Part shown: positions 10,914 to 60,084 of the stretch, piece by piece
Layout: each line of letters opens with the position of its first letter
Position numbering within the stretch: the stretch's first letter is position 1
Made by a program: the position numbers and the translations under genes
The notes under the pieces: model-generated
Databases searched by the model: none
Told to the model about the DNA's origin: nothing
The model's input: only the letters and a program-made list of their open reading frames with translations
Origin: a virus
Lineage: Duplodnaviria; Caudoviricetes
IMG/VR virus record: IMGVR_UViG_3300031418_000007
Direction: 5' to 3' (one strand)
DNA: 64,000 nt

Positions 10914-10953
10914 GAGAACTCCTTGTGGGGAGGTTGCCCTCCCCGATTAACTG

Positions 10954-13900
10954 TTAGCTGCTGGGGAGATCATGCTGGTACACATAGCTCAATGTACCTT
11001 CATCCATTGGCATGCCGATTGATACCGGGATTGACCCTGCTTTACGTGACGTGGAGAGAATAGCATCTCCGATCATCACAGTAGAGTAACGGTCAATGGT
11101 AAGAATTTGCTTGTCATTGGTGACCACTTTAGCAGCTGGAATCAAACTCAAGTTATGACGAATGCGTTTACCGGACACAATGTAATACGCTGTATCGCCG
11201 TAACAGGTGATATAGATGTAGAACGTTTTGTTAGCCGGAGTGGGGTCGATATCGCGCAGGTCCACTGTACCAGTTGGAGCGTCATACGACGTGCCGTTAA
11301 TTACCAGCTTGGTGCCTGCTTTGAAATAGATAATCCAACCGCTATCAGGATACACAGACGCCAGCAGGTAGTTCTGGTTATTGACGTTGGCGATCATCAC
11401 TGCCGCCCCCGTATAGCTGCGGTCGTACTGTGTACCGTAACCCACACGCGGGATCAACGGAACAGTATCCTCGCGACCATAACCGGTCCCTCGCCAACCC
11501 TGAGACACGAAATCCTGTGTGCCAATATCCCAGACGTAATCAAACGATGGAGCATAGGCACCGCCAGGCACGGTCACCATCCAGCCTGTGTGCAGTTTCA
11601 CCGTATAACGGTTCCCTTCTTTATAGAACGGCCAGTGGTTGCTACCGCCTTGAGAAGGAATATAGATGGAGCGGTTGGTGCCCTGACGTTTATCCCGCCA
11701 AACTGCTCCCTGCCTAACCAAGGTCGGGTTCGTTAACTGAATAACGGGAACGCCCACGCTGCTGGTCGGGTAATTAGTCTGTTGGAGATTCAGTGCAATT
11801 ACCTGCCCCATGATCATTGACCGATCTACGTCTGAGTAACCAAAGATCTGCGCAAAGCACGGTAAGCCCGCTGCCAACGGCGTCGTGGCTTGTGCCTGGT
11901 ACGGAATCATAACCTTGATCACCGCATAAGACATTTGAGCAGCTTCAGTGACGAACATGGCTTTGATCTGGTTCAACACCCCGGGGTTAATTCCGTAATA
12001 GGACGTTGGAGTCACTACCATCGTCAGGTTGTCATCGTTGTACACTTTCTGGAAGGTACGCGGAACAGAAATCAAACTGTCAACCATGTCATTGATGCGG
12101 TCACTGTACGGGAATTGAGAACGCCAACCATTATTCTCAAAGATCGCCTGTACCACTGACATAGACATGTCGCCACACTCCACACCTGCGGCATCCAGCG
12201 CCGCACTGTTTCCCGTGAACATCGCCATAGGGTAGTTGAAACCTACGTTGGTGCTGTAGACGGTGTTGACCAGAGGACGCCCTAACAGATTACCCAGCTT
12301 TAAGTTAGTCAACCCAGGACGAGACGCGTAGCCACCGCTAACCTTACGATAGATTTCTACCTGACTGCGACCCACTTTATCCCACGCTGGCACGAACTCA
12401 CCCTCACGGTCCCACACAGGATGTAACGCACCGGTGCCTTCTGCGGTGGGTGCAGTGACTGCCTGATTGGTGCGGGTGTAGACGATGTTGTTATTCAACA
12501 GATGCGTCTTAACGCCATCGGCGGCGTTGTTCGCCGCAGTTACCGCTACCCCTAACTGCATAGGAAAAGTTGTGGTGGAGTTCTGAGACACAACGAAGAT
12601 ATAGTCGCCAGTAGGCAACACCGCCATGGCGCAGGCAAAGTCAATGCCCACGGACTGATCAACAAACCCCACACTTTCCGCACCAGGAGGATATACACCC
12701 GTGGTGGTATCCGCTGTGACAATCGGTGAACTGTCTAGCAGTGACATTTGACCACTGTTCACATCCATGCGATAGGCATACTGGAAGTTCATGTAGAAGT
12801 TAGTCTGAGGCACACGTTGGTCATCAAAGATAAACGGTCGAAGATGAAAACGCATAACCAGAACATCCGTAGATTCTTCAGCAAAGAAAATCGGGTCCGA
12901 GAAACGATAGGAAATACCGCGTGTAGGTGGATTGAAGTTCCATAAGTAGCGAACGATCATGCCGTTACCGTCACGTGCGGTTTCGTCGGGGAAGAACCAC
13001 TGCTGGTTACTTTTACCGCGGCCAGCGAGATCAATGTAGTTCACATTCATCAACGCAGGAGTTAACACATTGCCCTGACCCAGTGATGATTTCGACACAC
13101 GGTAGAATGCCATGCCGTTGTTGTCACCGTTAGGGTTATTCGCCGCAAAGATAATCCAGTTCTTGGTACTCATTACCGTGTTGGGGTAATAACCCTGTTG
13201 GAAGTCCTGGTGTGGCAAACTCGAGAGATTCACTTCGGTAAAGACATGCGTAGCTGGGTTCAGTGTGCCGTTGGTCAATGACACCCACCATTTGTTTTTA
13301 GTAGAATCCCCAACCACCAACACGTCCTGTCCCGATCCACGCATCACTGTGTCCAGCACATAACCTGCGGCTTTCAATAACGGGTTCTCGTACTTGAAGC
13401 CAGTGAATAACAGATTGGGAACCTGGGCCTTATAGTTCTCGATATAGCTGAAATACAGAGCCTTAACACGTCCATCGAAGTGACGCTTGATCATCATCAC
13501 ACGACCGTTGTTTTCCAGACAGATCGCCGCCATGTTGGTGTCGGTGCCGATGCCTTCAAAACTCCCGTCGATCACAGGAGGCAGGTAGTCAGATGAACTC
13601 AACATAGAGATCGGCAACGTACCGTTCTTCATCAGCATCGAGGTATCAGGCGATTGTGCAATAACCGCCTGAACTGCGCCGGCTGGCGTTGAGAACAGGT
13701 CAGAACGTGTGCCGTCGATATCCTGCTGAATCGTGGCTGTGGCAAAGTTATCCACGTTGCCCAACAGTAGATCAAAGGCGGTTACCTTGTGCGGGTTACC
13801 GTAATTCTTGCCGTGCGCATCCAGCTTGTTACTCACCAATTTGTATTGTGTGATCAACGCATCCAACACTTGACGGACGTTGCTGTAGATCTCATCAACG

Positions 13901-14433
13901 TTCTGCTGCGTACGCACTTGACGTTCGGCTAATGCCAGCATATAACGACACATCATAACGATGTCGTCCCAGCCCAGCAGTTCTTCAGGCAGGTGCCAGT
14001 GTTCACTGGGTGGTAACGTGGCCGGGATCTGGATGACCTTGCTCCACGGAATCTTGTCTCCACCATGGATAATGGCGTAGATCTGTTCTTCCAGAGAAGC
14101 CCGCGGAACATAGGCGACACCCACTGAGTGGTAACTGATTACCAGACTATCTTCCTGCTCTAACAGAGAAGAGTCCAGCTCAATAAAGGTGTTGATGTCC
14201 AGTCCGGTCATCTCAATAAGCGGCATGGGTTTAAAACATTCTTTCCAACCCGTAGTAACAGGTTGTCCGTCCGAGGTTTTGATCTTTACTGAACCTGCGA
14301 CAAAAGGAGCACCGTTGGGAACAATCCAGGGACAGGTTTTATCGGTAAGTTTCTGAACCTCATCTTTTATATCGTTATTGGTATTTGTCCCATGCGGATC
14401 AAACGCCAAGTTTGGCCACATTTCAATAAACAT
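10954..14433 (-). CDS. Tail fibre / baseplate fibre paralog 2 (1159 aa)
   Basis: HGKNYGNPHKVTAFDLLLGNVDNFATAT; PPVIDGSFEG..; C-terminal LSTSRKAGSIP. Collinear with 14475..17972. Confidence 0.75.
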   Translation of the reverse strand: MFIEMWPNLAFDPHGTNTNNDIKDEVQKLTDKTCPWIVPNGAPFVAGSVKIKTSDGQPVTTGWKECFKPMPLIEMTGLDINTFIELDSSLLEQEDSLVISYHSVGVAYVPRASLEEQIYAIIHGGDKIPWSKVIQIPATLPPSEHWHLPEELLGWDDIVMMCRYMLALAERQVRTQQNVDEIYSNVRQVLDALITQYKLVSNKLDAHGKNYGNPHKVTAFDLLLGNVDNFATATIQQDIDGTRSDLFSTPAGAVQAVIAQSPDTSMLMKNGTLPISMLSSSDYLPPVIDGSFEGIGTDTNMAAICLENNGRVMMIKRHFDGRVKALYFSYIENYKAQVPNLLFTGFKYENPLLKAAGYVLDTVMRGSGQDVLVVGDSTKNKWWVSLTNGTLNPATHVFTEVNLSSLPHQDFQQGYYPNTVMSTKNWIIFAANNPNGDNNGMAFYRVSKSSLGQGNVLTPALMNVNYIDLAGRGKSNQQWFFPDETARDGNGMIVRYLWNFNPPTRGISYRFSDPIFFAEESTDVLVMRFHLRPFIFDDQRVPQTNFYMNFQYAYRMDVNSGQMSLLDSSPIVTADTTTGVYPPGAESVGFVDQSVGIDFACAMAVLPTGDYIFVVSQNSTTTFPMQLGVAVTAANNAADGVKTHLLNNNIVYTRTNQAVTAPTAEGTGALHPVWDREGEFVPAWDKVGRSQVEIYRKVSGGYASRPGLTNLKLGNLLGRPLVNTVYSTNVGFNYPMAMFTGNSAALDAAGVECGDMSMSVVQAIFENNGWRSQFPYSDRINDMVDSLISVPRTFQKVYNDDNLTMVVTPTSYYGINPGVLNQIKAMFVTEAAQMSYAVIKVMIPYQAQATTPLAAGLPCFAQIFGYSDVDRSMIMGQVIALNLQQTNYPTSSVGVPVIQLTNPTLVRQGAVWRDKRQGTNRSIYIPSQGGSNHWPFYKEGNRYTVKLHTGWMVTVPGGAYAPSFDYVWDIGTQDFVSQGWRGTGYGREDTVPLIPRVGYGTQYDRSYTGAAVMIANVNNQNYLLASVYPDSGWIIYFKAGTKLVINGTSYDAPTGTVDLRDIDPTPANKTFYIYITCYGDTAYYIVSGKRIRHNLSLIPAAKVVTNDKQILTIDRYSTVMIGDAILSTSRKAGSIPVSIGMPMDEGTLSYVYQHDLPSS

Positions 14434-14474
14434 GAAAACTCCTGGGGGAGAGTTGTCCCCTCCCCGTTAAAAGG

Positions 14475-17400
14475 TTAGCCTTGAATAATTTCAGGTGTAC
14501 GAATCCACGCCATCTGACCTTCCTCTGTAATCGCGCCTGTAACCGCCGGTATGGCGCCGCCACGTTTCACTTCACTCACACGTGCGCCATTAAGTAACAG
14601 GGCGTTAAAACGCGTGATATCGATGATTTGCGTGGCATTGGTGGTTACGGTACCAATCCAGATGTTGTAGATGGTGTCAAAGGTTTTGGTTTCACTGATG
14701 ACATAGGTCGCTACGCCATTGACCAGACGAGCATACAGATAGAACTTCGTATTACCCGGATCACCCTTGATAGAACGCAAGTCAACAGCGCCGGAACCCA
14801 ACTGGTAACTCTTGCCGTTAAAGATCACGTCGATATCGGTTTGGAAGAACAGCGTCCACGCCGGGTCTGGATAACAGGAGATCAATGCATAGACAGTACC
14901 GTTAGCATTGACGATCTCAGCCGTTGCACCAGTGACGTTGGGGTTGTACTTTCCACCCAAGCCGACCTTCGGAATCATCACCTGGTTGTTTGCTCCTTCC
15001 CATGACTGGTTATAGTTCGGGAGCAGGTTACTCACTGCCTGAGTAGAGGTGTCTACACTGAACACCGTACCGCAGCACGCTGAGTTGCCGATGTGACTCG
15101 TTCTGTACAGCGTGTTAAACGCCACACGGATGGTGTTACCGCTGTAGTAAAGACTTACAACGTTTTCACCCTGTCCATCAGAACCGTAGGTGAACTCCCA
15201 CTGTGTTGGTGTCAACCACAGCTGCTGGTTCATCGACTGGATATCACCACTGCTGATTACCGAGAAGCCGGTAACAATCCAGTTATTCGCATCAGCCTGA
15301 TTGTAGGTAACACGAATAGTGGCAACCACGTGACGACGTGCCTGATTCTTGACATCTCCATAAACCACCTGAACCAGAATCGGCTTCGTACCCACATTAC
15401 CCGGGATGGTGCTGACATCCGCAATTGACACCAGGCTATCGGGAGAATCCTGATAAGCCGCGGGAATCAATGCTTTGGCAATCTGACGCACCATGGCATC
15501 GGGATAGGTAATAAATGACGTCGGCAGGAAGTTCCAATCCGTGCTGTTGATCTTGAAGTTGTTATTGGTTCTCGCCAGCACGATTGTGCGGTCCGATTTA
15601 ACAACTGACGCCCAGGCACTGTGCGGATTCTTGTAAATACGTCCCTCAACACCCACACCCAACGAGGTCGCACCAAAGTTCAAGCCAGAGTTGGACAGGA
15701 ACGTGGTATCACCTGAGATACCCACACGCGGTTGAGCGTAGGGAATCCCTGTACGATAAACAGCATTCGACAATGGACGCGAATAGATGTTAGCAATATC
15801 CAGGTTGGTTAAGCTGGGCCGAACCGCGTATTCTCCACTGACTTCACGGAAGAAGATCTCACGACCACCATTGGAATATTTGGTTACTGCATTAAAGAAC
15901 TCACCCGCACCAGACCAACTCACCGCAGTAGGGTAAATCGAATACGCCAGAGGCGATGCGATGGCCTCTGTGGTAAGAACGACTTGTATGTTAGGGAAGT
16001 TGGCTTTTTCCAAACGTTTGGACAGCGTCTCGTAAGCAGACTTACCGCCGGTTTTAATTAAGTAACAACCGTGTGGGGTGCGGAAAGCCGAGTTCGTTTG
16101 AGACACCAACAAGTTACCGTCACTGAACGCCATCGTGCAGTTTTCTGCAAAGTACTGAGTTAAGTATGAATTTTCCCAACTTCCCCAATAACTTGTCAGC
16201 TGACCATCAATCGTCAACGGGTTCGACGAATCAATAGTCGGAGAAGCCTTGCTTTGAACTTGTGTCATTACGCCTGAGAACACATTAAACTCGTAGTTGA
16301 GTTCATAGGTATGACTGAACGAGTAGGAACCTCGTGTTGCGTCGATACCAGGCGTAAACGAGTGACTCAGGAACTTCATCAAGAAGATGCCCGGTCGGTT
16401 AGGGATAGCACAAGTCACGGTGGCGGCAGTGCGGTAAAAGGTATTGCCGACCTCGGTTAAATTAAGCGGATTACTATACCGGTTAATCAATCGAGTCACC
16501 AAGCCATTAGCGTCGCGCTGGATCTCGGCCCAAACAAAATAATCGTTGTTGCTGAAAGCACGACCGTCTTGGTTGGTAAACGTGAGCTTCATTGGTGTAG
16601 GGGTGAGTGTGTTACCTGACACAAAACTGTTCTTCGCCAAACGCCAAATACGACGATGACTGCGTCCGATGTTCTCACCACCTGTAGGATCCGCCATAGC
16701 CTGAACAATGATGACGTAATCACCCATGAGATGCGCAGACAGGAAATCCGTTTGCAGGTAGTTCTGGTCAAAACCGGTGACGTCCAATTCGCACATCACG
16801 TGGTAGCCCGGATCCAGTGTGCCATTCGTCAGGGCAATAAACCAACGCTTGGTGCGGGAAGAACCCACCAACAGCACTTCACCACCGCTGCCTTGTCCCA
16901 CCATGTTGGGGTTCTGGCTTTTTGCCGTTAACACCGGATGGGTATAACGGTAGCTCTGGTAGTTCATCTTCAGCGCATTCGGGTAACCGGTGATGATACT
17001 AAAGTAGAGTCCCTCGCTGCGCCCGTCGAAGTGGTTAGACAGGTAACTGATCGTACCGTCACTCTCTAGGCAAATTGCCGCACCTTCATGCTGTGATCCC
17101 AACCCCTCAAAGCTTCCCCCGATAGCAGGTGGAATAAACGACGTATTACCGTAAAACGAGATCGGCAGAACGTTGGACTTCAAAAAGGCGTCAGTGGAGT
17201 AACCGTAACGTCTGATGATCTGTTCCAAGGAGCTCGGCGTCAGCCGCATGTTGGGTGTGCCGTTGATAGCCTGGTCCAGAGAGGCCGTAGGGATGTTTTC
17301 CACTAGCCCCTTGCCAATCTGTGTCTTGGTGAGTCCATGCTCGTCATACTGCTCTGTGTGGCGTTTCAGCGCCTTCTGGACAATGACGGTATTGCGGTCA

Positions 17401-17972
17401 AAGTAGTTCTTTACCAGATTGGTCTGTGCCTGCAAAGCAATAGGGCTTACTGCTGGACTGATCTTGCTAAGGTTATCCGCCCAGATATCAATCAGTTCAA
17501 TGATGTCCTGGAAGTTGGTAACATCATAAGGCAGCAGATGCGTGTGGAACATTGGATCAAACACCACCGGTTTATCGTGGATGTTCTTCCACTTAATCAA
17601 CCGAGTGTCATTGGCTGCGGAGTTAATCAGCTCAATCAGTGAACGATCGAACAGGGGCGAACTCCCTACCGCATGGTAATCCATGTACATGGTTTTCAGG
17701 TTGGGGTTCAGCACTTCTATCAGAGCAGCGACACTCTGCGCACACATCGCAGAAAGCGAACCCATCATACGAAAGATTCGGTAGTCAGTGCCTTTAATCA
17801 GTTCCCGCCCCTTGTCATCACGTAACACTAATGAGTCACTAAAGAAGGGAGCATGAAGCGGAACAAATACGTTCTGGTCATCACGTAACACGTATTGTTC
17901 GTTAGGAACTTTGTTAACCTCGAACTCACGATTGATGTCGAGCTTGTAATCTCGAATGATGGGGTAGTTCAT
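14475..17972 (-). CDS. Tail fibre / baseplate fibre paralog 1 (1165 aa)
   Basis: HGLTKTQIGKGLVENIPTAS; PPAIGGSFEG; C-terminal VSEVKRGGAIP. Same architecture as phiKZ gp145/146 and SPN3US gp167-170 type proteins (recalled). Confidence 0.75.
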   Translation of the reverse strand: MNYPIIRDYKLDINREFEVNKVPNEQYVLRDDQNVFVPLHAPFFSDSLVLRDDKGRELIKGTDYRIFRMMGSLSAMCAQSVAALIEVLNPNLKTMYMDYHAVGSSPLFDRSLIELINSAANDTRLIKWKNIHDKPVVFDPMFHTHLLPYDVTNFQDIIELIDIWADNLSKISPAVSPIALQAQTNLVKNYFDRNTVIVQKALKRHTEQYDEHGLTKTQIGKGLVENIPTASLDQAINGTPNMRLTPSSLEQIIRRYGYSTDAFLKSNVLPISFYGNTSFIPPAIGGSFEGLGSQHEGAAICLESDGTISYLSNHFDGRSEGLYFSIITGYPNALKMNYQSYRYTHPVLTAKSQNPNMVGQGSGGEVLLVGSSRTKRWFIALTNGTLDPGYHVMCELDVTGFDQNYLQTDFLSAHLMGDYVIIVQAMADPTGGENIGRSHRRIWRLAKNSFVSGNTLTPTPMKLTFTNQDGRAFSNNDYFVWAEIQRDANGLVTRLINRYSNPLNLTEVGNTFYRTAATVTCAIPNRPGIFLMKFLSHSFTPGIDATRGSYSFSHTYELNYEFNVFSGVMTQVQSKASPTIDSSNPLTIDGQLTSYWGSWENSYLTQYFAENCTMAFSDGNLLVSQTNSAFRTPHGCYLIKTGGKSAYETLSKRLEKANFPNIQVVLTTEAIASPLAYSIYPTAVSWSGAGEFFNAVTKYSNGGREIFFREVSGEYAVRPSLTNLDIANIYSRPLSNAVYRTGIPYAQPRVGISGDTTFLSNSGLNFGATSLGVGVEGRIYKNPHSAWASVVKSDRTIVLARTNNNFKINSTDWNFLPTSFITYPDAMVRQIAKALIPAAYQDSPDSLVSIADVSTIPGNVGTKPILVQVVYGDVKNQARRHVVATIRVTYNQADANNWIVTGFSVISSGDIQSMNQQLWLTPTQWEFTYGSDGQGENVVSLYYSGNTIRVAFNTLYRTSHIGNSACCGTVFSVDTSTQAVSNLLPNYNQSWEGANNQVMIPKVGLGGKYNPNVTGATAEIVNANGTVYALISCYPDPAWTLFFQTDIDVIFNGKSYQLGSGAVDLRSIKGDPGNTKFYLYARLVNGVATYVISETKTFDTIYNIWIGTVTTNATQIIDITRFNALLLNGARVSEVKRGGAIPAVTGAITEEGQMAWIRTPEIIQG

Positions 17973-17981
17973 GCGATTGCC

Positions 17982-18728
17982 TTATGATAAGTTCAAGTTA
18001 CCGTTTGCCAGGCGTTTCAGGACTTCCATCAGCAGACCCATGGTAATAAACACGTTGGGGTTTTTACCGCCGATATCCTGGACTGTGCCGGTAGGGAAGT
18101 TGTCCACCTTGCCCAGGCCCACCATTGATGCGTCTGCTTTGTGCGCGGTATCCAGCTCGGCATCCAAGTGTGCCTGCAACAGCGACATGATAGTGTTGGG
18201 GTCAGTGGTGCGTACGGTGATGATCTGACGCAGCAGCTGCATCATGTCATAGACGTTGTACACCAGATTAACCGGGTGTTCGTGTGGGTCAGACGGCCAT
18301 TCAGTGGGAATGCCAACAAAGTCTTCCCAATACGCTTCGCGGTCGTGGTTCAGCAGGTTCGCCACCATCTCTGCGTAGGCGATCTCATCCAGCACAAACT
18401 TACCACCGATCGTGTTGTAACGAATCACATAGTTGCCGGTGTTGGGTGCGGGAATAACCACTGAACCCATGACGTTGATTTGGTACTTTTTGATAAAGAC
18501 GTCAAAGGGGTTCGCCAACGCCGCCTGGTTTCCCAGGGATAGGCGGGTTCCGGTGATGGTACCGTCTTGGTTAATAGTGGCGTTGCTGTACAGCTCAAAA
18601 TCGTTTAAGAAAAACGGTGCTGCACGGGGAATATAAAGGTTGCGTTCAGGGGTCAGGGTGAATGACTCAGTCACGCGGTTATTAACGTTGGTGTTATACG
18701 GATTGTACGGATACGTAATCTGTGCCAT
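17982..18728 (-). CDS. Short fibre-family protein (N-terminal anchoring module only)
   Basis: YIPRAAPFF, WPSDPHEHP and HKADASMVGLGKVDNFPTG match the N-terminal modules of the large paralogs. Confidence 0.7.
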   Translation of the reverse strand: MAQITYPYNPYNTNVNNRVTESFTLTPERNLYIPRAAPFFLNDFELYSNATINQDGTITGTRLSLGNQAALANPFDVFIKKYQINVMGSVVIPAPNTGNYVIRYNTIGGKFVLDEIAYAEMVANLLNHDREAYWEDFVGIPTEWPSDPHEHPVNLVYNVYDMMQLLRQIITVRTTDPNTIMSLLQAHLDAELDTAHKADASMVGLGKVDNFPTGTVQDIGGKNPNVFITMGLLMEVLKRLANGNLNLS

Positions 18729-20853: not shown

Positions 20854-20919
20854 CTTATAGTTATGTTTAACCCACCTCGTCCCGGGTATTGTCGAGACTG
20901 TCATAAAAGGTAGGGGGTA

Positions 20920-21450
20920 TTACTTTACCGAGATCCAAACTTGATTGTTGAGATCCCACAGGTCACCGGGTGATGGCTGTGGTGTAGTGGTGCGGACAAA
21001 GCCAGCGCCACTGAGATCGGTAGTGTCATTAACGGTAAGAAACGTGCGGGTTTGAGCATTCCACCAGTAGAACGACGGCTGGTCTTGAGCAGGGTCTTGA
21101 GCACCGAGCCTACGCAGCAAGATGTTCTTGGCCTTTTCACCTAAACCGGTGTTCGACAAAATCGTGGAGATGGTCTTGTTGGCATTGCTGAAACTCATGG
21201 CGCAAATCGTCACACCCACTGTCATGATGAAGAAGTGCCATTCGCCTGGCCAGCCTTTGCCTGCCTGTACAGAAAGGCGGGTAGTGTAGGCGTCCATAAC
21301 GGCGATTAAGCACATTGTGAACACCACCACCGTACCGCACAGGTACCGTACAATCGCCCCCCACTTGCCAAAGAACTGGGATTCAAGTCCCGTGCCTTTG
21401 GCCGGCGGGAGTGTTTCTTCCCGGGGCAGTTCTTGTTCTTGTGTAGTCAT
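20920..21450 (-). CDS. Two-TM membrane protein, holin candidate
   Basis: Two hydrophobic segments (YLCGTVVVFTMCLIAVM; FFIMTVGVTICAMSF) and a soluble C-terminal tail; convergent with the spanins. Confidence 0.45.
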   Translation of the reverse strand: MTTQEQELPREETLPPAKGTGLESQFFGKWGAIVRYLCGTVVVFTMCLIAVMDAYTTRLSVQAGKGWPGEWHFFIMTVGVTICAMSFSNANKTISTILSNTGLGEKAKNILLRRLGAQDPAQDQPSFYWWNAQTRTFLTVNDTTDLSGAGFVRTTTPQPSPGDLWDLNNQVWISVK

Positions 21451-23636: not shown

Positions 23637-24026
23637 TTAAGCGGTACGCAATATAAAAGAATTGGCAAAATACATAGAATCCAGGGACATCATCACCTGA
23701 GACTGCTTACGGTCAATCGGGTTGATAAAAGCAATATCTCCGATAACCATTCCCAGACTCGTACAACGGTTGATGTAGTTCACCACGGTGACGGGTGTTA
23801 ATGGAACACCCTGTGGAAAACTCCAGTCTTTAAACGTACTCACGTCGTATTTAGTTAATGCCCAGCTTTGTGGAACAGGGTTAAGTGGAGTATAGACGTC
23901 AAACACCGCCTCATACGTCTCATTTACATCTCGGAAGATTAACCAGATCTTACTGATTGTTTCCTTGTCCGTGATGCCCTTCTCCAATATGTATTCGCGT
24001 TTGGCTAATACGAGATCGACGTTCAT
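23637..24026 (-). CDS. Hypothetical (probable baseplate) protein
   Basis: ATGA-coupled to the upstream gene; conserved-looking SLDSMYF C-terminus. Confidence 0.6.
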   Translation of the reverse strand: MNVDLVLAKREYILEKGITDKETISKIWLIFRDVNETYEAVFDVYTPLNPVPQSWALTKYDVSTFKDWSFPQGVPLTPVTVVNYINRCTSLGMVIGDIAFINPIDRKQSQVMMSLDSMYFANSFILRTA

Positions 24027-26248
24027 TTCTGGGTCCCTAGCACGTCATAATAAGTTGGCGGGATAATCAGCATGGGGTCTTCTCCTGGATCCGCCAATTC
24101 TCCATAATAGGTTGGTGGCAATTCCAGATCGAGCAGCGGTATGCTTTTTGCCTCCACAGAAATAAAGGAGGTGTTGGGAATACGCAGTGCGGTAAGAGGT
24201 CCAATATCTTTGCTGTGATCCAGTCGTGGTTTGGTCGTGTCGGTAAACCGTGCCTTGACGGTGGCTGACGCCTGATCAAGTTTGGGCTGAGTGGTATCCG
24301 ATAACCGTAGTGTGAGTTCCGGTATCGCATCCAGCGCCAGTGCATGATTGAGTTTTAGCTGAACGTTTGAGAAGTCCGCCTCCAGTTGATGTCCCAATCC
24401 CATATAAGCAGAATCACCCATGGTGTTGTCAGACAACAACTCAATCACGTCAGAACCGTCATCCATGGTTTTAATGGTGTGGACGGTATAGGAGCTCAGC
24501 TTCATCATGAGGTCAATCAAATCATTCTGAATGCTGCGCAGTGACGGATTGTTATTGAGATCCCAACCTGTAAAGGTTTTAAAGATTACCCAGGCGAGGT
24601 TAGTGAGCTCTTCACGATTGTAGTCGTCAAAGTCCAATGCGTACTTCTGCAAGAAACGCACGTAACTGTGGTCTTCTACTAATGAGATTTCACCTGTCTC
24701 GTACATCAGCTTGGTGGCGTTCTTTACCGCCGCACGTGTTACCTGATCACCGTACGAACTGTAGAGCTTGCGGTGCTTCCACATCGAAATATAGATCGAC
24801 TTGGAAACGTTTAGCAATTCCTCAGCAGAACCCACTGACACCACGTCTACAAACTGATCACGAATGCTACCCACAACAGCATCAGTTATGTATTTGCTTC
24901 CCAATCCCACTTGGCGTAATTCTTTTGCCGTAGGGGGCAAGAGACGCATGACGTTATAATAGAAGGCATTCTCAATGGTGGTGAGTTCATGACCCGCGGC
25001 TAACCGAGTGATATAACGCCACAGCGTAAAGGCATCCCGCGCATCCAGTCGTAATAAACGACCGTCTTTAGGGTTCACCACCGCCATGTTAACCTGATAG
25101 ACACCTTTACCAGCAAGATAGATCCACTGGTTAAACACCACGGTCATCATGGTGTCGCTGTGACGGTTGGTGTAATCCGCCATCTCAGATTCCAGGACTT
25201 TGGTAGGCAGCTCGGTGTGCAAACTGTAGGTCCCTTCAAAAGTCGCTTCCTCTTGATAGATCGAGGTCATCAGCGTGTTGTCTACCGCCATTGGCCTTTC
25301 TTTCTCAATGAGCTTCTCGGTTTCGAAATAGACAGGTGTGATTTGCTTGTCGTCATTCATGTTCAACTGAGTTCGCTTCCACTGAGGCGTCGGTACCAGG
25401 TCAGTTAACTGTGATTTGGTGTTCAGTACCATCTCATATTTCGAGAGCGGAATCTTGCGCGGCGTAAGCAGCTTGTCCATCAGCTGATCAAAGGTGAACT
25501 CCTTACCGGCGTTGTTATTGATCCACTCGATGTTACGATGCAACCACATGACCTGTTCACGATCCAACGAGTTCTTGTAGACCGAGAACTCACCGTAGGA
25601 ATCGATATGACTCCAGATATAGAAGTCATGGGCATGTCGGGTCTTGATAGCTTGGAAACGCGTCAGGTGTATGCACTGAACGATCCCACTATAAAGGTCG
25701 ATAACCATCTGGCGCAGCATCAGGTCTTCAGAGACATGATACTCTGTTTCAAACATTGCCGGTGCGTTACCGTTTATCCAACGCTGTACCTGCGGAATCA
25801 ACGGCCCTTCGTTCCACAAAACCAGATTCTCATTATAACGAAGAATCTTATAGTTTGGGGCAGCAATAGAAACATCATATGTAATCGGAAACAGAATTCC
25901 ATTAATCAGGAGTGTCTGTCCGTCGTAAACTTCAGTAAGACGCTTGTACAGGTCACCGCCCTTTAAATACTGGCGATAGGTGAGAAGATGCTGAGCCATC
26001 GTCTCTTTGGTGAAAGGTATCTCTTCACCTGTGTCCAAGGAAATCACCTTCATGACTTTATCAGTCTCGTGGTAATCCCCGTTTAAATTCATGTAATAGC
26101 GCCAGGTGCGCTTATTATTGAGAACGGTGTATCCGGCCTTTTCCAACACTTCATTATCACGTTTAGCAATGGCTTCTATTTTTACTACCATTGTTCGAGC
26201 GAGTTGGAAAGTGTCGGAATAGAAATTATCGAGATCTATTCTATTCAT
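24023..26248 (-). CDS. Large virion structural protein (phiKZ gp128-like, probable baseplate/tail), C-terminus with two P-P-T-Y-Y motifs
   Basis: WRYYMNLNGDYH..D..M.V.SLDTGEEI.F signature; divergent from the portal as in phiKZ-type genomes. Likely start MNRID at 26248. Ends LELPPTYYGELADPGEDPMLIIPPTYYDVLGTQK. Confidence 0.72.
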   Translation of the reverse strand: MNRIDLDNFYSDTFQLARTMVVKIEAIAKRDNEVLEKAGYTVLNNKRTWRYYMNLNGDYHETDKVMKVISLDTGEEIPFTKETMAQHLLTYRQYLKGGDLYKRLTEVYDGQTLLINGILFPITYDVSIAAPNYKILRYNENLVLWNEGPLIPQVQRWINGNAPAMFETEYHVSEDLMLRQMVIDLYSGIVQCIHLTRFQAIKTRHAHDFYIWSHIDSYGEFSVYKNSLDREQVMWLHRNIEWINNNAGKEFTFDQLMDKLLTPRKIPLSKYEMVLNTKSQLTDLVPTPQWKRTQLNMNDDKQITPVYFETEKLIEKERPMAVDNTLMTSIYQEEATFEGTYSLHTELPTKVLESEMADYTNRHSDTMMTVVFNQWIYLAGKGVYQVNMAVVNPKDGRLLRLDARDAFTLWRYITRLAAGHELTTIENAFYYNVMRLLPPTAKELRQVGLGSKYITDAVVGSIRDQFVDVVSVGSAEELLNVSKSIYISMWKHRKLYSSYGDQVTRAAVKNATKLMYETGEISLVEDHSYVRFLQKYALDFDDYNREELTNLAWVIFKTFTGWDLNNNPSLRSIQNDLIDLMMKLSSYTVHTIKTMDDGSDVIELLSDNTMGDSAYMGLGHQLEADFSNVQLKLNHALALDAIPELTLRLSDTTQPKLDQASATVKARFTDTTKPRLDHSKDIGPLTALRIPNTSFISVEAKSIPLLDLELPPTYYGELADPGEDPMLIIPPTYYDVLGTQK

Positions 26249-26272
26249 TTTGTTTCCAAAAAAGAGGCTATA

Positions 26273-29200
26273 ATGGTCCAAAGTCGAGATATGACCAGAG
26301 GAACGCAGCGCGCACAACTCTCTCGTTTAAGAGAGAGTATTAAGTCCACGAATCCCCTGGTGGCAGCAACGCTTCGTAATGCTACGCCCAAGAATGGCCG
26401 CGCACCGGAAGCAAATGAACTCACTGCGGGAAATGAGCGTAATGCGATTATGCCGCACAAGCTCGAACGCATCAGCAACATCATTGCTAACAACATTAAC
26501 GCTGCTAATGACCTGCGCGCGATTACACCCTATATCGACCGTGCTGAATTAATCTGGTCTTCGCTGCTGCTGTATCCCAACGGGAAACAGAAAAACATCC
26601 TGGAATACTCGACTCGTGCTTCTCGTTACAAAAATACGCCGTTGCATATCGCATTATTAAAGGTTTGGAAAGATTACTTTACAAACGACTATAAAATCGA
26701 AGACGAGTTGCGCACCCAGATCGATGACATGCTCTGGAACACCGGCAGCTACGCCACATTGACACTCAGTCGCATTTCGTTGGACTATTTGATCAACGGT
26801 ATGGAAGTGGTGGATCGTTCGGGTAACGAGGATCTGAAGGCGGTTCACACGTATCAGCAAACGCAGGGTAACTTTGTCTTTGACAAGAAAACCGGCAAGC
26901 TCAAGGTGATGAACGTCGGCACATATGTCCGGCCTGTTCATGATGAGTCCAAAGACGTGTTTAATGTCGCCGGACTGGAATCAATGATGGGTGGTGGGGA
27001 TTTTAAAACATCCAACCAACCTGAGTTCGATATCCTTAAAGGCTCTGAGCTTGACGGCAACGAAGGCTTCTTTATTTCCTTTACGGATAACCCCGCGGTA
27101 CTGGCGACTAATCTCCTGGCCGAGAAGCGTAAGAAGTTCAATGAGAAGTTCTACGCAGGTAACGAAGATTTCTCCTCGTTGATTCAAAAGACGTTGAGTA
27201 ATCAGGGCGCCAAAGAAGATGATCGCGATAAGTCTGTAAGAAAGCCAGATGACAAGAAAGGCCGTCGTCCTGATCAGCCAAAAGCACGCACCACGAATAT
27301 GTCGATGGGTACGCTGAACAGCTTACAGAACGATATCTTCCCTCATCGCCGTGCTCCGAATCAGTTCATGCAGTTTGTCAAGCAAGACACTGATTTAGGT
27401 GTGCAGAACTACGGTACGCCGATTGACTGGCATGTGCCATCTGCTGCTATCATTCCGATTCACATCAACGGCAATGTGCGCAAGCGTAAAGACTACATCA
27501 TTCTGTTTGATCCAGACACGGGTGAGTTCCTGAACCCGACCATGGACTTCCAGTTCTACCAGAGCTCGAAGAAACAGCAAGATGGCATCACCAACAAGAA
27601 CCAACAGGGCGGAACGAATTCACTGATCGATAACCTGAAACAGATTCAACAGGGTAAAGACTGTGACTTTGATATGACCGAGTTTGCTGAACTGAGCAAG
27701 GGCATTATCATTGAATCGTTTATGAAGTCTGTGATCTCTGGTCGTTCGGGTTCTATCTCTGTAGATCTGGATGAAGAAACCAACAAGATCTTCATGGCGC
27801 GTATGTTCCGTGGTCAGGGCATCCGTGCTCTGTATGTTCCGGGTGAGTGTGTCACGTACTCCGCGTTTAAGTTCAACGCACTGGGCGTGGGTCAGTCACT
27901 GACTCAGGCTGCTAAAATGCACATCGCACGTTTAGCGGCAATGGATCTTGCAGACGCCATGGCAAACATGGAAGCTGCGCAGTCCACAAACAAAATGCGC
28001 ATCACGTTGGACAAAGATGACCCGAACCCAGAGCGCACTATTGCAATGGCCAGGGAAGTCTTCTTCCGTGCTAACCCACGTTTCTATAACGTGTTAGCCA
28101 CTAACCAGATGAGTATTCCTGTGCTGGTTGATGCTTTCCGTGAACTCTCGTTGACGTTGGAAGTGGATGCTGGTGAAAACCCGTATTTACCTGTGCCGGC
28201 TATCTCTGTGGAACCTCAGGAAAAACAGCACTTCCGCAAAGTGGATTCTGACAGTCGCAACGAAGTGTTGAACAAGATCGCCAACTACTTCATGTTGCCG
28301 CGTAGCTGGTTGGACGTCGCAGATGAAAACAATAACTTCCAGATTGAAGCGCTGAATGAACACCGTTTGGTGTATAACCAGGCATTGAACTGGCAGGAAC
28401 AGATTGCAGACTTTGTTATCGAGCGTGAACGTAAGTACGCGCGTGTTAACCAACCTCTGCTGCTGAGCCTGATTCAAGTTATCAGTGATCAAAAGAACCT
28501 GTGGAAGCCCGACAACAAGGAGATTGAGATCGAAGGCGGTACCGATGCTGAGAAGATCGAAACCATCCTTGAAGACTTCCTCAACAACATTGAGTGCTCG
28601 TTGCCTGCGCCTGCTGTAATGGAACAGGCCAACAAACTCAAAGAGGGTCTGTCTACTGCTACTGATCTGGTAACGCAGTGGTGGGAAGCTAATGGCAAAA
28701 CCGCCTTAATCAGTAAGGCTGTGGAAACCATGAACCTGGGCGGTGAATACAGTCCAGAACAGGTTGAGGCGATGGTCAAGGCTTACCTCTACCAGAAAGC
28801 GCACAAGTTCCTTAACATTCCTTCACCGTTTGATGATGCTGTTGATGATCCATCAGGTGGCGGCATGGCAAGTATTGTGGAAAGCGTGGTCACTCAGAAC
28901 AAGGCGTTGTATAACTTCCTGGGTAACTTAGCGATTCGTGATCTTGATGAGCGTACGAAGGTGGTGAGTTCGCTGAGCGGAAAGATCGAGAATAAGCTCG
29001 AGAAGTTCCAAACGAAAACTGGTGGGGAACAAACCGAAGAATCTGAGCCAAGTGCGGATCCATTTGCACCACCGGCTGGTGATGGCGGGGAACCTCCGGT
29101 AGACAACCTGGACGACAATGGTGAGACAAAGCCGGATGACTTTAATCCGGATGATCTCAATGACGACGCGAATAACAGCGACAACGCTGATGACACGGGT

Positions 29201-29338
29201 GAACCAAAGGATGACGACGCGGGTGTAAAACCTGAAGATGAATCTGGTGAAGCCAAGCCAACAGACGACGACGCCGTTGATCCTAAGTCAACTGAGCTCT
29301 CCGACAGTAAGAAAGGTAATGATAATCCGTTTGGTTAA
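26273..29338 (+). CDS. Portal protein (phiKZ gp129-like)
   Basis: Start MVQSRD at 26273 with SD AAGAGG. GSYATL, WHVPSAAIIPIH, F..RMF, LYVP..C..Y.AF..NALGVGQSL motifs; D/E-rich C-terminal tail; synteny. Confidence 0.78.
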   Translation: MVQSRDMTRGTQRAQLSRLRESIKSTNPLVAATLRNATPKNGRAPEANELTAGNERNAIMPHKLERISNIIANNINAANDLRAITPYIDRAELIWSSLLLYPNGKQKNILEYSTRASRYKNTPLHIALLKVWKDYFTNDYKIEDELRTQIDDMLWNTGSYATLTLSRISLDYLINGMEVVDRSGNEDLKAVHTYQQTQGNFVFDKKTGKLKVMNVGTYVRPVHDESKDVFNVAGLESMMGGGDFKTSNQPEFDILKGSELDGNEGFFISFTDNPAVLATNLLAEKRKKFNEKFYAGNEDFSSLIQKTLSNQGAKEDDRDKSVRKPDDKKGRRPDQPKARTTNMSMGTLNSLQNDIFPHRRAPNQFMQFVKQDTDLGVQNYGTPIDWHVPSAAIIPIHINGNVRKRKDYIILFDPDTGEFLNPTMDFQFYQSSKKQQDGITNKNQQGGTNSLIDNLKQIQQGKDCDFDMTEFAELSKGIIIESFMKSVISGRSGSISVDLDEETNKIFMARMFRGQGIRALYVPGECVTYSAFKFNALGVGQSLTQAAKMHIARLAAMDLADAMANMEAAQSTNKMRITLDKDDPNPERTIAMAREVFFRANPRFYNVLATNQMSIPVLVDAFRELSLTLEVDAGENPYLPVPAISVEPQEKQHFRKVDSDSRNEVLNKIANYFMLPRSWLDVADENNNFQIEALNEHRLVYNQALNWQEQIADFVIERERKYARVNQPLLLSLIQVISDQKNLWKPDNKEIEIEGGTDAEKIETILEDFLNNIECSLPAPAVMEQANKLKEGLSTATDLVTQWWEANGKTALISKAVETMNLGGEYSPEQVEAMVKAYLYQKAHKFLNIPSPFDDAVDDPSGGGMASIVESVVTQNKALYNFLGNLAIRDLDERTKVVSSLSGKIENKLEKFQTKTGGEQTEESEPSADPFAPPAGDGGEPPVDNLDDNGETKPDDFNPDDLNDDANNSDNADDTGEPKDDDAGVKPEDESGEAKPTDDDAVDPKSTELSDSKKGNDNPFG

Positions 29339-33473: not shown

Positions 33474-34484
33474 TCATGCTACTGTTTTGTAAATACTCAG
33501 CAGCGCGCTACAAACAATCGAAGCATTCTTAACATAGCCTCCTAGTGTATCCATTCCGGCTTTCTTCTTCTCCAACTTCTCGAAGAACTTCTGCTCCATA
33601 TCCTTTTTGGTGACTTCGGCTTTAAGTGTAGCAACTTCATTTGTAACGACCGCTACGCGTTGTATCAATTCCCCAATGCGTGTGCGCTGGGTGGACAACA
33701 TGGTCATCAGATCACGACTTTCTTTCTTGACGTTATCCAGACTCTTGCGAGTACGGATCAGCTCGTCAGTGTTGCCTCCTAAAAGTGCTTCTTGTTCACT
33801 CATGAATATACCATATTGCTGTAGTATTTTATTATCGATCTCATCGAAAGTATAATAGCATTGAATACCGTCGACATCCTCGCCCTCACAAAACAGATAC
33901 AGACCAGGCGGTTGATCTGTAGCCCTCACTGCATCCACCTTTACCGCACGACCAAACACATTGGTCCAGAGATTACTGAAACGACGATCTGGGTCAATGA
34001 GCTTAATGGTTGCGTTAACGCTATTGCTGATATTGGCTGAATCAACAAGATCGTCTAACGCCTCGTTGGGTGTATTCAGCGCATGAAGCGCACGCTGATA
34101 TTTGCCCAGGTAAAGAGTGAATCCCAACATCTCGCTGTGTACCGAGTTCTTGCGACTTAATTCTTGTGCTGTGATATAAACCGTAAAGGTAAGGCTCTGA
34201 CAGCCCAACAAGACTTCATCGTGCGGATACGTGCGAATGATTCCATCAATATGGTCTTTCAGTTCCTGCATTACTTTGCGGTCAAAGTTCGTCAGTGCGT
34301 CATTGGGATTAACCCGCAGCTTACGAATGTCCACATCATTAATACGAAACTCAATGTAAACTCGCTCCCCTACATCGGTCCAGTTATCATGCAATTCATA
34401 ACCGATCCCACCTTTGTATCGGATCTGCAAAGGAACAGCCTTTGGATTGAATATCTTGTAATCTAAATTAAAGCATCGATTCAT
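33474..34484 (-). CDS. Hypothetical protein (phiKZ gp122-like position), C-terminal coiled coil
   Basis: ORF between MCP and nvRNAP subunit, with its own promoter motif. Confidence 0.65.
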   Translation of the reverse strand: MNRCFNLDYKIFNPKAVPLQIRYKGGIGYELHDNWTDVGERVYIEFRINDVDIRKLRVNPNDALTNFDRKVMQELKDHIDGIIRTYPHDEVLLGCQSLTFTVYITAQELSRKNSVHSEMLGFTLYLGKYQRALHALNTPNEALDDLVDSANISNSVNATIKLIDPDRRFSNLWTNVFGRAVKVDAVRATDQPPGLYLFCEGEDVDGIQCYYTFDEIDNKILQQYGIFMSEQEALLGGNTDELIRTRKSLDNVKKESRDLMTMLSTQRTRIGELIQRVAVVTNEVATLKAEVTKKDMEQKFFEKLEKKKAGMDTLGGYVKNASIVCSALLSIYKTVA

Positions 34485-34541
34485 TTTTAGGGCCCTATAT
34501 TTGATTCTCTGATCCGTCGATCATTTTGAGTGTATACTGTC

Positions 34542-34562
34542 TAATAATGTAGGTCTGAAAAT
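34542..34562 (-). promoter_or_regulatory. Putative phage RNAP promoter (copy 3)
   Basis: TAATAATGTAGGTCTGAAAAT, upstream of the operon containing the nvRNAP subunit. Confidence 0.6.
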
Positions 34563-34572
34563 AAATAGCGAG

Positions 34573-34620: not shown

Positions 34621-34644
34621 ATTACAATCGGGGTTGGCCTCCCA

Positions 34645-34710
34645 TCATCCTAGGTAAGCCGACTGATCAAGTTCACCGTAATAGGTTGACGGGAGGATGA
34701 TCAGTTTCCC
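34645..34710 (-). other. Predicted -1 programmed ribosomal frameshift site and 19-aa C-terminal extension of the MCP
   Basis: In-frame G GGA AAC (34710-34704) immediately before TGA. The -1 frame reads LIILPSTYYGELDQSAYLG* (stop 34647-34645). Confidence 0.72.
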
Positions 34711-36962
34711 GGGGCTGGGGTCACATCTTTAGTGATCACCGGAGAAGACGCGTCGTTCACGATCTTCACTTCAGATGGGCCAGTAGCAGCGCCGCCAGAA
34801 GTGGTGTTCAGAGTGGTACCCGGAGCAGAGCTAACTTTGACACCGCCCAGCTTGAAGAACACGCCAGCATCGCCCAGGAAGTCCGCAGCATCTTCGATGA
34901 CCAGTGAGCCAACGATGACGTTCAGGTTCCAGTGCAGGTAGCAAGGCATGGTCATCATGACGCCGAAGTCTTGGTTGCCACGAGTTACGTTGCCGTGCAG
35001 CACAACGTTTTCTTTAGCAACGTTAACACCGATGCCGCCCAGCGGGTTGATACGATCTTCAGTTGAGTCGTTCTGAGGAACGATCAAGATCTTACCGATC
35101 ATGCTGTCGAAGTTGGTCGCAACGATGTTGAAGTCTTCAGACGCAGTGATACGCGCGTCGCCAGAACGCATCAGGAAGCGCTCGAGGTTCTGGTGCACGA
35201 TCACAGACCATTTGGTCTTAGCGATACCAGAGTACTCGTTGATGGCAGCGATACCAGATTTGAACGCCAGGGCAGCAGTGATGTCCTGGATTTCAGTCAG
35301 CAGCAGTGAACACACGTTGTCGAACACGTCGATGTTTTCAGGAGAAGAGATGTGATCCTGAATACGGAACGAACGATGAACGGTAGACGCTTTAACGTAC
35401 ATGCGACCCGGCAGATCGTTACCGCCGTTTTCGTTATCAACAACTGGCGCACCATCGATAGAAGTGAGGTATTCCAGATGCTTGTACGCGGTTTCGAAGG
35501 CTTTCTTCGAGCAGTTAGTCTGGATGGTAACACCCATGTAGCTAACAGCGTCGTCCAGCGCTTCTTTGTTCACGTCTTCTGCGCGGATTGGGTATTTGAC
35601 AGAGATCGGATCCTGACGACGAGTGGTCAGTTCTTTGCTGGTGTCGAATACTTCCAGGCGGTAGCCGAAGTTGCCGTTAGAGGCGTTGGTCAGGTTCATG
35701 CTTGGAGTTGCAGCATTAACCACACCGCCTTTCAGGCCCTGCAACAGCGCTTTCTGCTCAGCGGTAGCCGTTGAGTGAGTGATACGCTTGTTGTTGTCGT
35801 TCAGATCGGTCAGAGACTCGATGTTAACCTGACCAGTGGTCAGCTCCAGACGGTAAGACTGGCGGTTGAAGCGCGCGGTCATGCGGACGTTGAGGTTAGG
35901 CTCATAGCCTTTGTCGTAGTACGCTTTGAACAGAGCTTTAACACCTTTACCATCTTTGTCAACCAGCGCAGAAACCGGCAGGTGACGCAGAGTGATGTCC
36001 AGATCACGGTCGTTTGAGTTCTGGCCAACAGAGGTCGGAGACATGTTGATGTTGGTCATGGACTCGGTAGGAACGAATGCCTGGATAGCAACACCGTTCA
36101 GTTTACCGCCGAAGCCCAGTTCCAGGATACGGATAGATGCAGATTCAACATCATCAGTATCAGTCCACGGACGCTGACCAGGTGCCTGGCACAGACCCAT
36201 CAGGTTGTTAACAACGCTTGGTACTGCCAGCATCTGGGTCAGGTGAGCCTGACGACCGTATGCATCACCGGTAGGGTAATCCTGATCAACTGGTGCTTTC
36301 AGGTCCGCATCGATGAACAGCTGAGCGTTTTCGTCGTTTTCGTCGGCCGGCAGAACTGGCCAAATGCGCAGCACGTCATCTTTGAAGATGTCGCCGTTAC
36401 GCAGGATACCGAAGATTGGAGTCAGTTCGGTAACGCTTTCCCAGGCAGAGGCGCCAGAAACGTATGAACCTACACCGGCAGCACGCACGGTCAGTTTCAC
36501 ACCTTCATCTTCGTAACGTACGGAGATGGTTTTGTACAGCTCTTCAGCAGCTTTGGTCTGCAGACGAGTCTGAGTGTTCAGAACGATGTTAACCGCTTTG
36601 GTTTCCATGCTCTGACCTTTGAACTGCGCCAGGGTGAATGATTCAAGACCCTGACGTTTCGCGATATCGTTCAGCGTGTCTTGCGTGAAGACCTGCGCTG
36701 CGATCTCGGTGTGGTTGTCACGACCGATAGCTGCACGGGCTGCATCGAAGCCGCCGTTGTTCAGGTTTGCTTCCATACCTTTCTGGAAGCCTACCAGACC
36801 CTGTGCTTCACCGCCAAAGATCTGGCCAAACTGCTGTTTTGCATCAGAGAAAGACTCAACGCCACTAAGCGCAGCGAAGCTTTGGTTCTTGGTCAGGGAC
36901 AGAGCCTGATTAATGAGGTTGCCGGTGTTGCGAACGCCAGCTTTGACGGGTTTAAAAGCCAT
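34701..36962 (-). CDS. Major capsid protein (phiKZ gp120-like)
   Basis: 753 aa; strongly biased high-expression codons; QTKAAEELYKTISV, PCYLHWNLNVIVG-type C-terminus; position between DnaB and nvRNAP beta genes; N-terminal propeptide with GxE sites. Confidence 0.88.
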   Translation of the reverse strand: MAFKPVKAGVRNTGNLINQALSLTKNQSFAALSGVESFSDAKQQFGQIFGGEAQGLVGFQKGMEANLNNGGFDAARAAIGRDNHTEIAAQVFTQDTLNDIAKRQGLESFTLAQFKGQSMETKAVNIVLNTQTRLQTKAAEELYKTISVRYEDEGVKLTVRAAGVGSYVSGASAWESVTELTPIFGILRNGDIFKDDVLRIWPVLPADENDENAQLFIDADLKAPVDQDYPTGDAYGRQAHLTQMLAVPSVVNNLMGLCQAPGQRPWTDTDDVESASIRILELGFGGKLNGVAIQAFVPTESMTNINMSPTSVGQNSNDRDLDITLRHLPVSALVDKDGKGVKALFKAYYDKGYEPNLNVRMTARFNRQSYRLELTTGQVNIESLTDLNDNNKRITHSTATAEQKALLQGLKGGVVNAATPSMNLTNASNGNFGYRLEVFDTSKELTTRRQDPISVKYPIRAEDVNKEALDDAVSYMGVTIQTNCSKKAFETAYKHLEYLTSIDGAPVVDNENGGNDLPGRMYVKASTVHRSFRIQDHISSPENIDVFDNVCSLLLTEIQDITAALAFKSGIAAINEYSGIAKTKWSVIVHQNLERFLMRSGDARITASEDFNIVATNFDSMIGKILIVPQNDSTEDRINPLGGIGVNVAKENVVLHGNVTRGNQDFGVMMTMPCYLHWNLNVIVGSLVIEDAADFLGDAGVFFKLGGVKVSSAPGTTLNTTSGGAATGPSEVKIVNDASSPVITKDVTPAPGN

Positions 36963-59363: not shown

Positions 59364-60071
59364 TTAAAAGTCGTCCAGCAGTTCGTTGAACACACGCAGC
59401 AGATGCACGCGCATTTGCAGGTGAGTCTTGAAGTTTTGCAGATCTTCCTTGGAGCTGATCCAATTCAAACGTTCCACAATACGCGGAAGTTCGGTATAGC
59501 AGCCCGAGATGTCAACGCAGAACTCTTTTGCTGTGCGGGTAATCAACTCGCTGACTCCGGCGAATTCACTGCTCTTCGCGTAGTAGTCGCGCAGCGCAGC
59601 GTCATCTAACACAATGAAGTTCTGTTTGTTGATGAACTTCAGTCGTGCCGGATCGTAGTCCTTGAAGCCACACACCAGACCCGCCACGATACTTTTCAGG
59701 TAACCGTAACGTGTAGGTGGAACGCGACGTGTATCTTGCAGCATCTCGTACACGCGGTCGCCAGTCTGGGACAGGGCGTCGTAGAACTCCCGGGCAACGT
59801 CCAGCCCCACAGCTTTCATGCCACCGTGACGCACACCAAACTTCACCAGCACGCTTAACACAGTCCAACGTACATCGTAATCACACGGTACATAAGACAT
59901 CGTTGCCAGACGCTCTTTGATCTCAGTGCGCAGAGGTTCCTGAACAGTGGTCAACAGCATCAGTGCTTGATCAAGGTTGAGTTCGTTGGGGAGCTCAAAG
60001 CCCAGGGTTTGCGTCAGCGTATTTTCAACGTTATCCGCTAACGTCTGAAGGTTTTCGAAATTAACAATCAT
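59364..60071 (-). CDS. Hypothetical protein
   Basis: Start MIVNF at 60071 with SD AAGGA; helical-looking sequence. Confidence 0.65.
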   Translation of the reverse strand: MIVNFENLQTLADNVENTLTQTLGFELPNELNLDQALMLLTTVQEPLRTEIKERLATMSYVPCDYDVRWTVLSVLVKFGVRHGGMKAVGLDVAREFYDALSQTGDRVYEMLQDTRRVPPTRYGYLKSIVAGLVCGFKDYDPARLKFINKQNFIVLDDAALRDYYAKSSEFAGVSELITRTAKEFCVDISGCYTELPRIVERLNWISSKEDLQNFKTHLQMRVHLLRVFNELLDDF

Positions 60072-60084
60072 GGTAGGCTTGTCC

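Follow-up and report, generated by a model that had tools for sequence, protein, structure and literature searches.

In phages T7 and T3, ribosomes that slip into the -1 frame at an X XXY YYZ heptamer late in the major capsid gene (gene 10) make 10B, a minor subunit with an extended C-terminus, alongside 10A; the T3 site reads C CCA AAG, and we know of no partner for the T7 10B extension. Immunoglobulin-like (Ig-like) domains are likewise added by frameshift, and Listeria phage PSA has +1 shifts in its capsid and tail genes; by such recoding one module appears on both head and tail with an occupancy set by recoding efficiency. Terminal peptides that fill a groove in another subunit are familiar from donor-strand complementation in chaperone-usher pili and from the cargo-loading peptides of encapsulins. 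According to the structural atlas of phage phiKZ (Nat Commun, 2026; PMC13250141), the baseplate wedge protein gp128 assembles with two copies of gp87 into a heterotrimer, contacts the outer baseplate via gp139 and has domains rich in alpha-helix, and the C-terminus of gp26 is inserted into neighboring outer baseplate proteins. Here we analyze a stretch of 64,000 nucleotides (hereafter “the window”) from the IMG/VR virus record IMGVR_UViG_3300031418_000007 (Duplodnaviria; Caudoviricetes). It belongs to a 109-kb contig from a jumbo phage of the phiKZ-like kind; among named phages, Erwinia phage RisingSun and Pseudomonas phage EL are the closest (<50% protein identity). A short peptide motif stands twice at the C-terminus of its gp128-like baseplate wedge protein and once more in a -1 frame extension of its major capsid protein (MCP), and comparative evidence from the EL/RisingSun clade is strong that this extension is reached by a conserved, programmed -1 frameshift at the 3′ end of the MCP gene.

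The MCP gene of the window (phrog_3231, major head protein, E 1.7e-142; tblastn also matches the MCPs of RisingSun and EL) ends in the zero frame with CCG GGA AAC TGA. Read in the -1 frame, the same region gives GGG AAA CTG ATC ATC CTC CCG TCA ACC TAT TAC GGT GAA CTT and so on to a TGA, an open frame that holds LPSTYYGEL. As an earlier note on this DNA had observed, the peptide is identical at eight of nine residues to the first motif copy in the gp128-like tail, LPPTYYGEL (TTG CCA CCA ACC TAT TAT GGA GAA TTG), and the match is kept at the protein level, the DNA differences other than the one residue change being synonymous; the tail, with its second copy IPPTYYDVL, was read just as the note had given it. 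In a six-frame translation of the window there are four matches to the pattern P[PS]T[YF]Y, with 0.13 expected and at most two in 300 shuffles. The fourth match, at 20894-20920, lies in a further candidate -1 extension, that of a membrane protein gene, discussed below. The stem-loop predicted at the MCP site, a candidate frameshift stimulator, begins 7 nucleotides past the heptamer and encloses the extension reading frame (Table 1).

The MCP 3′ ends that we read came from the window, from a relative whose gp128 is 88% identical, from RisingSun, EL and FishSpeaker and from 16 metagenomic phages, 21 clade genomes altogether. The -1 frame past the MCP stop is open and carries the motif in all 21, in extensions of 11-20 residues (PKRLIPSTNYGRLG in RisingSun and PKRRSVSPANYGRLEYPELP in EL, each up to the stop, and PKSINPYYYGNLG... 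in FishSpeaker); the predicted trans-frame ends are ...DPK-RRSVSPANYGRLEYPELP in EL and ...DPK-RLIPSTNYGRLG in RisingSun. An X XXY YYZ heptamer lies 0-3 codons ahead of the stop in 17 of the 21, in the forms C CCA AAC/T, G GGA AAC, A AAA AAC or A AAC CCN, and in every genome a hairpin that encloses the extension is predicted a few nucleotides downstream of the slip site (z < -2.8 in 14 of 21; from -0.4 to -6.2 outside the window). Three elements of a programmed -1 signal are found here, namely a heptamer in the zero frame, a predicted downstream structure and an open -1 frame under protein-level selection. No motif-bearing -1 extension of the MCP was found in five outgroup phages (Miami, pTD1, Aphrodite1, OBP and 201phi2-1). 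We found no published description of the motif or of the MCP frameshift: the literature search returned no paper on either in EL/RisingSun-type phages, and a trans-frame MCP product is mentioned neither in the RisingSun mass-spectrometry paper nor elsewhere in the literature searched.

It could be argued that the MCP -1 frame is not translated at all and that its similarity to the wedge protein is a by-product of the RNA hairpin or of gene recombination, and the extension does lie inside a strong predicted hairpin. However, the 21 genomes hold 21 distinct DNA versions of the extension, among which the peptide is kept while third codon positions are free to vary (entropy in the conserved motif codons 0.60 bits at position 1, 0.27 at position 2 and 1.50 at position 3); the slip sites are conserved in position, and a frame open throughout the clade lacks the motif in each of the five outgroups. 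We therefore find this explanation barely credible. The proposal of the earlier note that the motif itself supports translation in the -1 frame is borne out, as far as the DNA can tell, by this coding signature together with the slip site and the downstream hairpin. Transcriptional slippage was also considered as a general mechanism and was rejected because most of the MCP slip sites have only three A’s.

The likeness to gene 10 of T7 and T3 extends to the clade’s C CCA AAC site, which is close to that of T3, but the clade’s extension is short (about 15-22 residues) and is conserved as a defined motif found also on baseplate and fiber-family proteins, and these phages are nucleus-forming jumbo myoviruses. 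As with the frameshift-added Ig-like domains and the recoding in PSA, one accessory module is placed on both capsid and tail components; the clade’s module, however, is a short linear peptide and not a folded domain, and the gene of the baseplate protein encodes it in frame, as tandem copies.

The open reading frame of the baseplate carrier extends upstream to a TTG at 26317 (24023..26317, minus strand), allowing 741-764 residues; the likely start is the ATG at 26248, and the product from that ATG is identical to database protein P0001. The protein ends ...LDLELPPTYYGELADPGEDPMLIIPPTYYDVLGTQK (tail end LELPPTYYGELADPGEDPMLIIPPTYYDVLGTQK). Judged by its sequence it is a homolog of phiKZ gp128 (PDB 9xqs_C, “PHIKZ128,” phmmer E 2.2e-80, query residues 23-618 against 3-599; phrog_3222, E 1e-206), with which it shares about 600 residues of homology, a helix-rich build and a gene beside the portal gene (26204..29338, divergent from it); Pfam gave no match for this protein, for the gp147-like proteins or for the two-helix membrane protein described below. 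The AlphaFold2 (AF2) model is mostly helical, with residues 1-565 confident, and agrees with the helix-rich two-domain fold of the gp128 family, a comparison made with the published description. Both motif copies lie in a probably flexible tail, because the predicted local distance difference test score (pLDDT) stays below 50 over residues 566-741.

Across 120 database homologs and 80 loci on viral contigs, nearly all gp128 homologs at least 44% identical to the query carry one to six tandem copies of [ILV]-P-x-T-x-Y-G-x-L in the C-terminal tail. The EL homolog has LPETNYGRLVFKEL, GPADYGRLVFKEL and DPANYGRLVLRG, some lineages have IPETDYGRLxWP and others LPDTYYGDL; a few homologs terminate just ahead of the motif array. 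The motif thus behaves as short linear motifs do: it sits in a low-pLDDT tail (<50) and is kept while copy number, spacers and lineage flavor vary. The earlier note had held that absence of the motif from homologs of both proteins would count against its proposal; it is instead kept in homologs of the wedge protein and of the MCP alike. The motif was not found in the gp128 homologs of the Vibrio, OBP and phiKZ/201phi2-1 clades, whose tails end differently. In the phiKZ-like group a tail ending ..NSxDPNYPDM is conserved, and in other jumbo-phage clades there are other C-tail motifs, some of them tandem LDxLxYP units (loci L079, L080, L084 and L069-L075); with different motifs on the wedge protein of other clades, it may be a general trait of gp128 tails to bear peptide arrays. 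Prohead-protease cleavage was dropped as a function for the motif: phiKZ-like prohead proteases follow an S/A/G-x-E rule, and the EL-type motifs (YGRL) have no Glu.

Table 1. Positions in the window of the motif carriers and of the candidate recoding signals.
Feature	Position	Strand	Remarks
gp128-like baseplate wedge protein gene	24023..26248	-	741 aa from ATG at 26248
Motif copy 1, LPPTYYGEL	24095..24121	-	gp128-like C-terminal tail; copy docked in the complex model
Motif copy 2, IPPTYYDVL	24038..24064	-	gp128-like tail, 12 residues ahead of stop
Major capsid protein (MCP) gene	34701..36962	-	753 aa; stop TGA 34701-34703
Slippery heptamer G GGA AAC	34704..34710	-	zero frame, immediately ahead of MCP stop
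Predicted MCP -1 extension GK-LIILPSTYYGELDQSAYLG-stop	34645..34707 (from K)	-	motif LPSTYYGEL at 34669-34695
Predicted stem-loop, candidate frameshift stimulator	34638..34696	-	RNAfold -26.8 kcal/mol, z -3.4
176-aa membrane protein, two predicted helices	20920..21450	-	ends ...VWISVK-stop; phrog_14084
Second candidate -1 extension VIPPTFYDSLDNTRDEVG-stop	20867..20923	-	after GTA AAG TAA; IPPTFYDSL at 20894-20920

A degenerate DNA pattern for CCNNNNACNNNNTAYGGNNNNYTN was used to scan whole genomes, a search of relatives that the earlier note had proposed. Each clade genome gave one to six matches, mostly at C-termini or in -1 extensions, and the five outgroup genomes gave two altogether, both broken by in-frame stops. 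The carrier that recurs beside the wedge protein and the MCP is a family of about 200 residues (phrog_18233) that includes EL gp147, RisingSun gp205 and gp206, and P0127, whose contig appears to be the full genome of the window phage. These gp147-like proteins have the motif at the C-terminus in EL, RisingSun, FishSpeaker, G003, G005, G008, G010, G012 and G016, that is, in every clade genome where one was located, and the tail positions P-x-T-D-Y-G-x-L are invariant in 15 aligned sequences. In G010 the gp128 tail is without the motif, yet the MCP extension and the gp147-like copy are kept. The motif is also carried by RisingSun gp197, whose annotation is that of a virion structural protein, and a 565-residue fiber-like protein on the window’s contig, which has no sequence match among solved structures, ends IPTTDYSQLGN. 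The gene for the latter is followed by three paralogous genes of about 300 residues each (L186:5765-8501; 105764-108500 on contig G000) whose products all end W-P-[IV]-[LF]-x-L; RisingSun gp197 followed by gp198-200 is arranged likewise.

The gp147-like protein is also a candidate partner of the peptide. Its N-terminal domain recurs in the larger RisingSun virion proteins gp197, gp201 and gp207. It is modeled with a pLDDT of 91 (about 75 in the tail), and the best structural match of the model, the sole one to rise above background, is chain 9xqd_0 from entry 9xqd, the outer baseplate of phiKZ (Z 5.5 over 127 residues, next best 3.3); Foldseek alone gave no match at E <0.001. We predicted the complex that residues 1-192 of P0127 would form with the C-terminal 49 residues of the window’s gp128-like protein, alongside three controls. 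The interface score ipSAE (interaction prediction score from aligned errors) was 0.88 (0.92, 0.83 and 0.88 in the three runs, partner pLDDT at least 53), and the best control scored 0.00. Of 80 solved complexes, 58 score at least this high, as do 2 of 110 mismatched pairs; these counts hold only roughly here because we used our own alignment. In the predicted interface, LLDLELPPTYYGELA (copy 1) lies against strand 64-76, helix 9-18 and residues 181-182 of P0127, with partner residues 13-27 and 29 in contact with the N-terminal domain; runs 1 and 3 have 68% of their contacts in common. Conserved gp147-like residues are not clearly enriched at this interface (about 29%, against 25% elsewhere). 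The complex prediction supports, without proving, the idea of the earlier note that one common partner binds the peptide wherever it occurs; the roles are to be exchanged, however, with the motif acting as a plug and not, as the note had it, as the socket.

We consider it reasonably likely, on the strength of these models and of the motif’s distribution, that the motif is a C-terminal docking peptide carried on flexible tails in a plug-and-socket scheme. The plug, [ILV]-P-x-T-x-Y-G-x-L, would fit, as an extra strand, into a groove in the gp147-like N-terminal domain (about 190 residues), the proposed socket, a domain that the larger fiber-family virion proteins have in common with the gp147-like protein. 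The wedge tail would offer one to six tandem plugs (two in the window phage), and a -1 frameshift at the last MCP codons, at G GGA AAC here, would swap the last residue for about 20 residues with one plug, so that frameshift efficiency would set the fraction of capsid subunits recruiting the same partner. Fiber-family proteins would thereby be attached to both the head and the baseplate. A gp147-like protein could in addition cap itself, or chain head to tail, because it carries both socket and plug. Such docking would be akin to the insertion of phiKZ gp26, to pilus donor strands and to encapsulin loading peptides in that a terminal peptide on a flexible linker fills the groove of another subunit; it differs in that no sequence relation to any of them was found, in that the pairing of peptide and domain is a predicted one, and, for encapsulins, in that their tag is on the cargo and the clade’s is on the shell protein.

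The same conserved residues could be read differently, as a recognition sequence for an enzyme that modifies capsid, baseplate and fiber proteins alike, for instance by glycosylation of Thr or Tyr. Both residues are conserved, the peptide that holds them sits on exposed tails, and there is precedent, in that some mycobacteriophages glycosylate the C-terminal tails of their capsid and tail-tube proteins. Against this, no candidate enzyme was identified, and the invariant Pro, Gly and Leu, as well as the strong strand-type docking predicted, fit a binding peptide better; we judge modification very improbable.

Another possibility is that both the motif and the MCP frameshift are real and the receptor is something else, such as a chaperonin encoded near the gp147-like genes, another baseplate or fiber protein, or a host protein, the predicted docking then mimicking the packing of the gp147-like protein’s own tail in cis. 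In EL, gp147 adjoins the GroEL-like gp146, and on the contig with a protein identical to P0127 (L183:6174-10648; EL counterpart 149158-151626) the gp147-like gene is three genes from Cpn60. The tail pLDDT of the gp147-like monomer would fit packing in cis, and a single pair was modeled, with one of three runs deviating. However, the gp128 homolog and the MCP of OBP are without the motif, although OBP is reported to encode a chaperonin; the RisingSun carriers lie within the structural-gene block gp196-207, and the controls of the complex prediction gave no signal. A different receptor therefore seems unlikely to us.

The membrane protein introduced above bears on a further reading. It is homologous to EL gp109 and RisingSun gp94, and its candidate -1 extension, with a hairpin predicted at 20871-20914, is kept in the related loci L009 (VIPSTFYNSLDNTQG, up to the stop) and L185 (VIAPTYYGNLGQY, up to the stop), both with GTA AAG TAA. 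A two-helix membrane protein that would gain a plug by a second -1 site, kept in three relatives with 68-100% gp128 identity, is what might be expected if the plug served localization within the cell during assembly, gathering heads, baseplates and fiber proteins at one site such as a membrane. Most of the clade lacks this carrier, however: the extension is absent from L184, EL and RisingSun (the EL and RisingSun homologs are shorter), and the motif scan of G003 gave none. A role in localization, which we regard as quite improbable, would also be compatible with plug-and-socket docking and not exclusive of it.

Several points weigh against the plug-and-socket scheme and the frameshift on which it builds. 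In four of the 21 genomes the heptamer is not canonical (A ACC CCG stands at the stop in three of them, and G003 is unclear), and the flavors of the MCP and gp128 motifs, which agree in most lineages, disagree in G007, G019 and G002. Both the frameshift product and the binding of the peptide are predictions, and the published mass spectrometry of RisingSun did not look for trans-frame peptides. Among the sequences of solved structures, no match was found for the MCP, for the gp147-like profile or for phiKZ gp135. The complex score is the model’s own confidence; run 2 has about 0% of its contacts in common with runs 1 and 3 and may have docked the second gp128 motif copy. The model may do no more than complete a fold that is normally closed in cis, because the gp147-like tail carries the same motif.

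Some other features of these genomes deserve mention. Paralogs of the socket domain occur with another conserved tail (..EFLYDGTYKYDGTMTY, ..RFNGQFRYDGTLTY and ..KYNGLFTHNGTLHY, each directly ahead of the stop), among them those at 108605-109201 on contig G000 (L186:8615-9202), at 163313-163927 in EL, and RisingSun gp201; this tail may be a second type of plug. A 248-residue protein of the window (59364..60110, minus strand) has an internal motif-like VPPTRYGYLKS, conserved in the relative G003 (LPPTRYGYLKSVV); it is probably part of the fold and not a tail plug, because about 115 residues separate it from the C-terminus. Four neighboring genes at 8040..18728 (minus strand) encode proteins of 248, 1165, 1159 and 957 residues; the first three have in common an N-terminal module of about 260 residues assigned by PHROGs to tail or tail fiber (phrog_2163), and the fourth is tied to the 1159-residue gene via phrog_14667. 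Public runs with parts of window positions 34400-35400 hold contigs of relatives and come mostly from phyllosphere, plant and rhizosphere metagenomes, a source that suggests a plant-associated host for the window phage.

Taken further, and held tentatively, the pattern may amount to a code in the EL/RisingSun clade in which the plug is in tandem on the wedge protein, single on fiber-family proteins and conditional on the capsid (in some lineages also on a membrane protein) by way of -1 frameshifts, docking into a common N-terminal domain of the fiber family, with slippage setting the number of fibers or decorations on the head. What has been lacking from annotation is an MCP recoding that we predict to be conserved in a whole clade of jumbo phages, the well-studied EL and RisingSun included. 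Its link to a peptide borne on the baseplate offers a concrete rule, open to test, for the attachment of accessory proteins to large virions, and it proposes a role for the variable C-terminal tails of the gp128 family and for the small gp147-like proteins, the latter so far without an assigned role. Such a rule could guide annotation, the interpretation of cryo-EM maps and the display of foreign peptides on jumbo-phage capsids.

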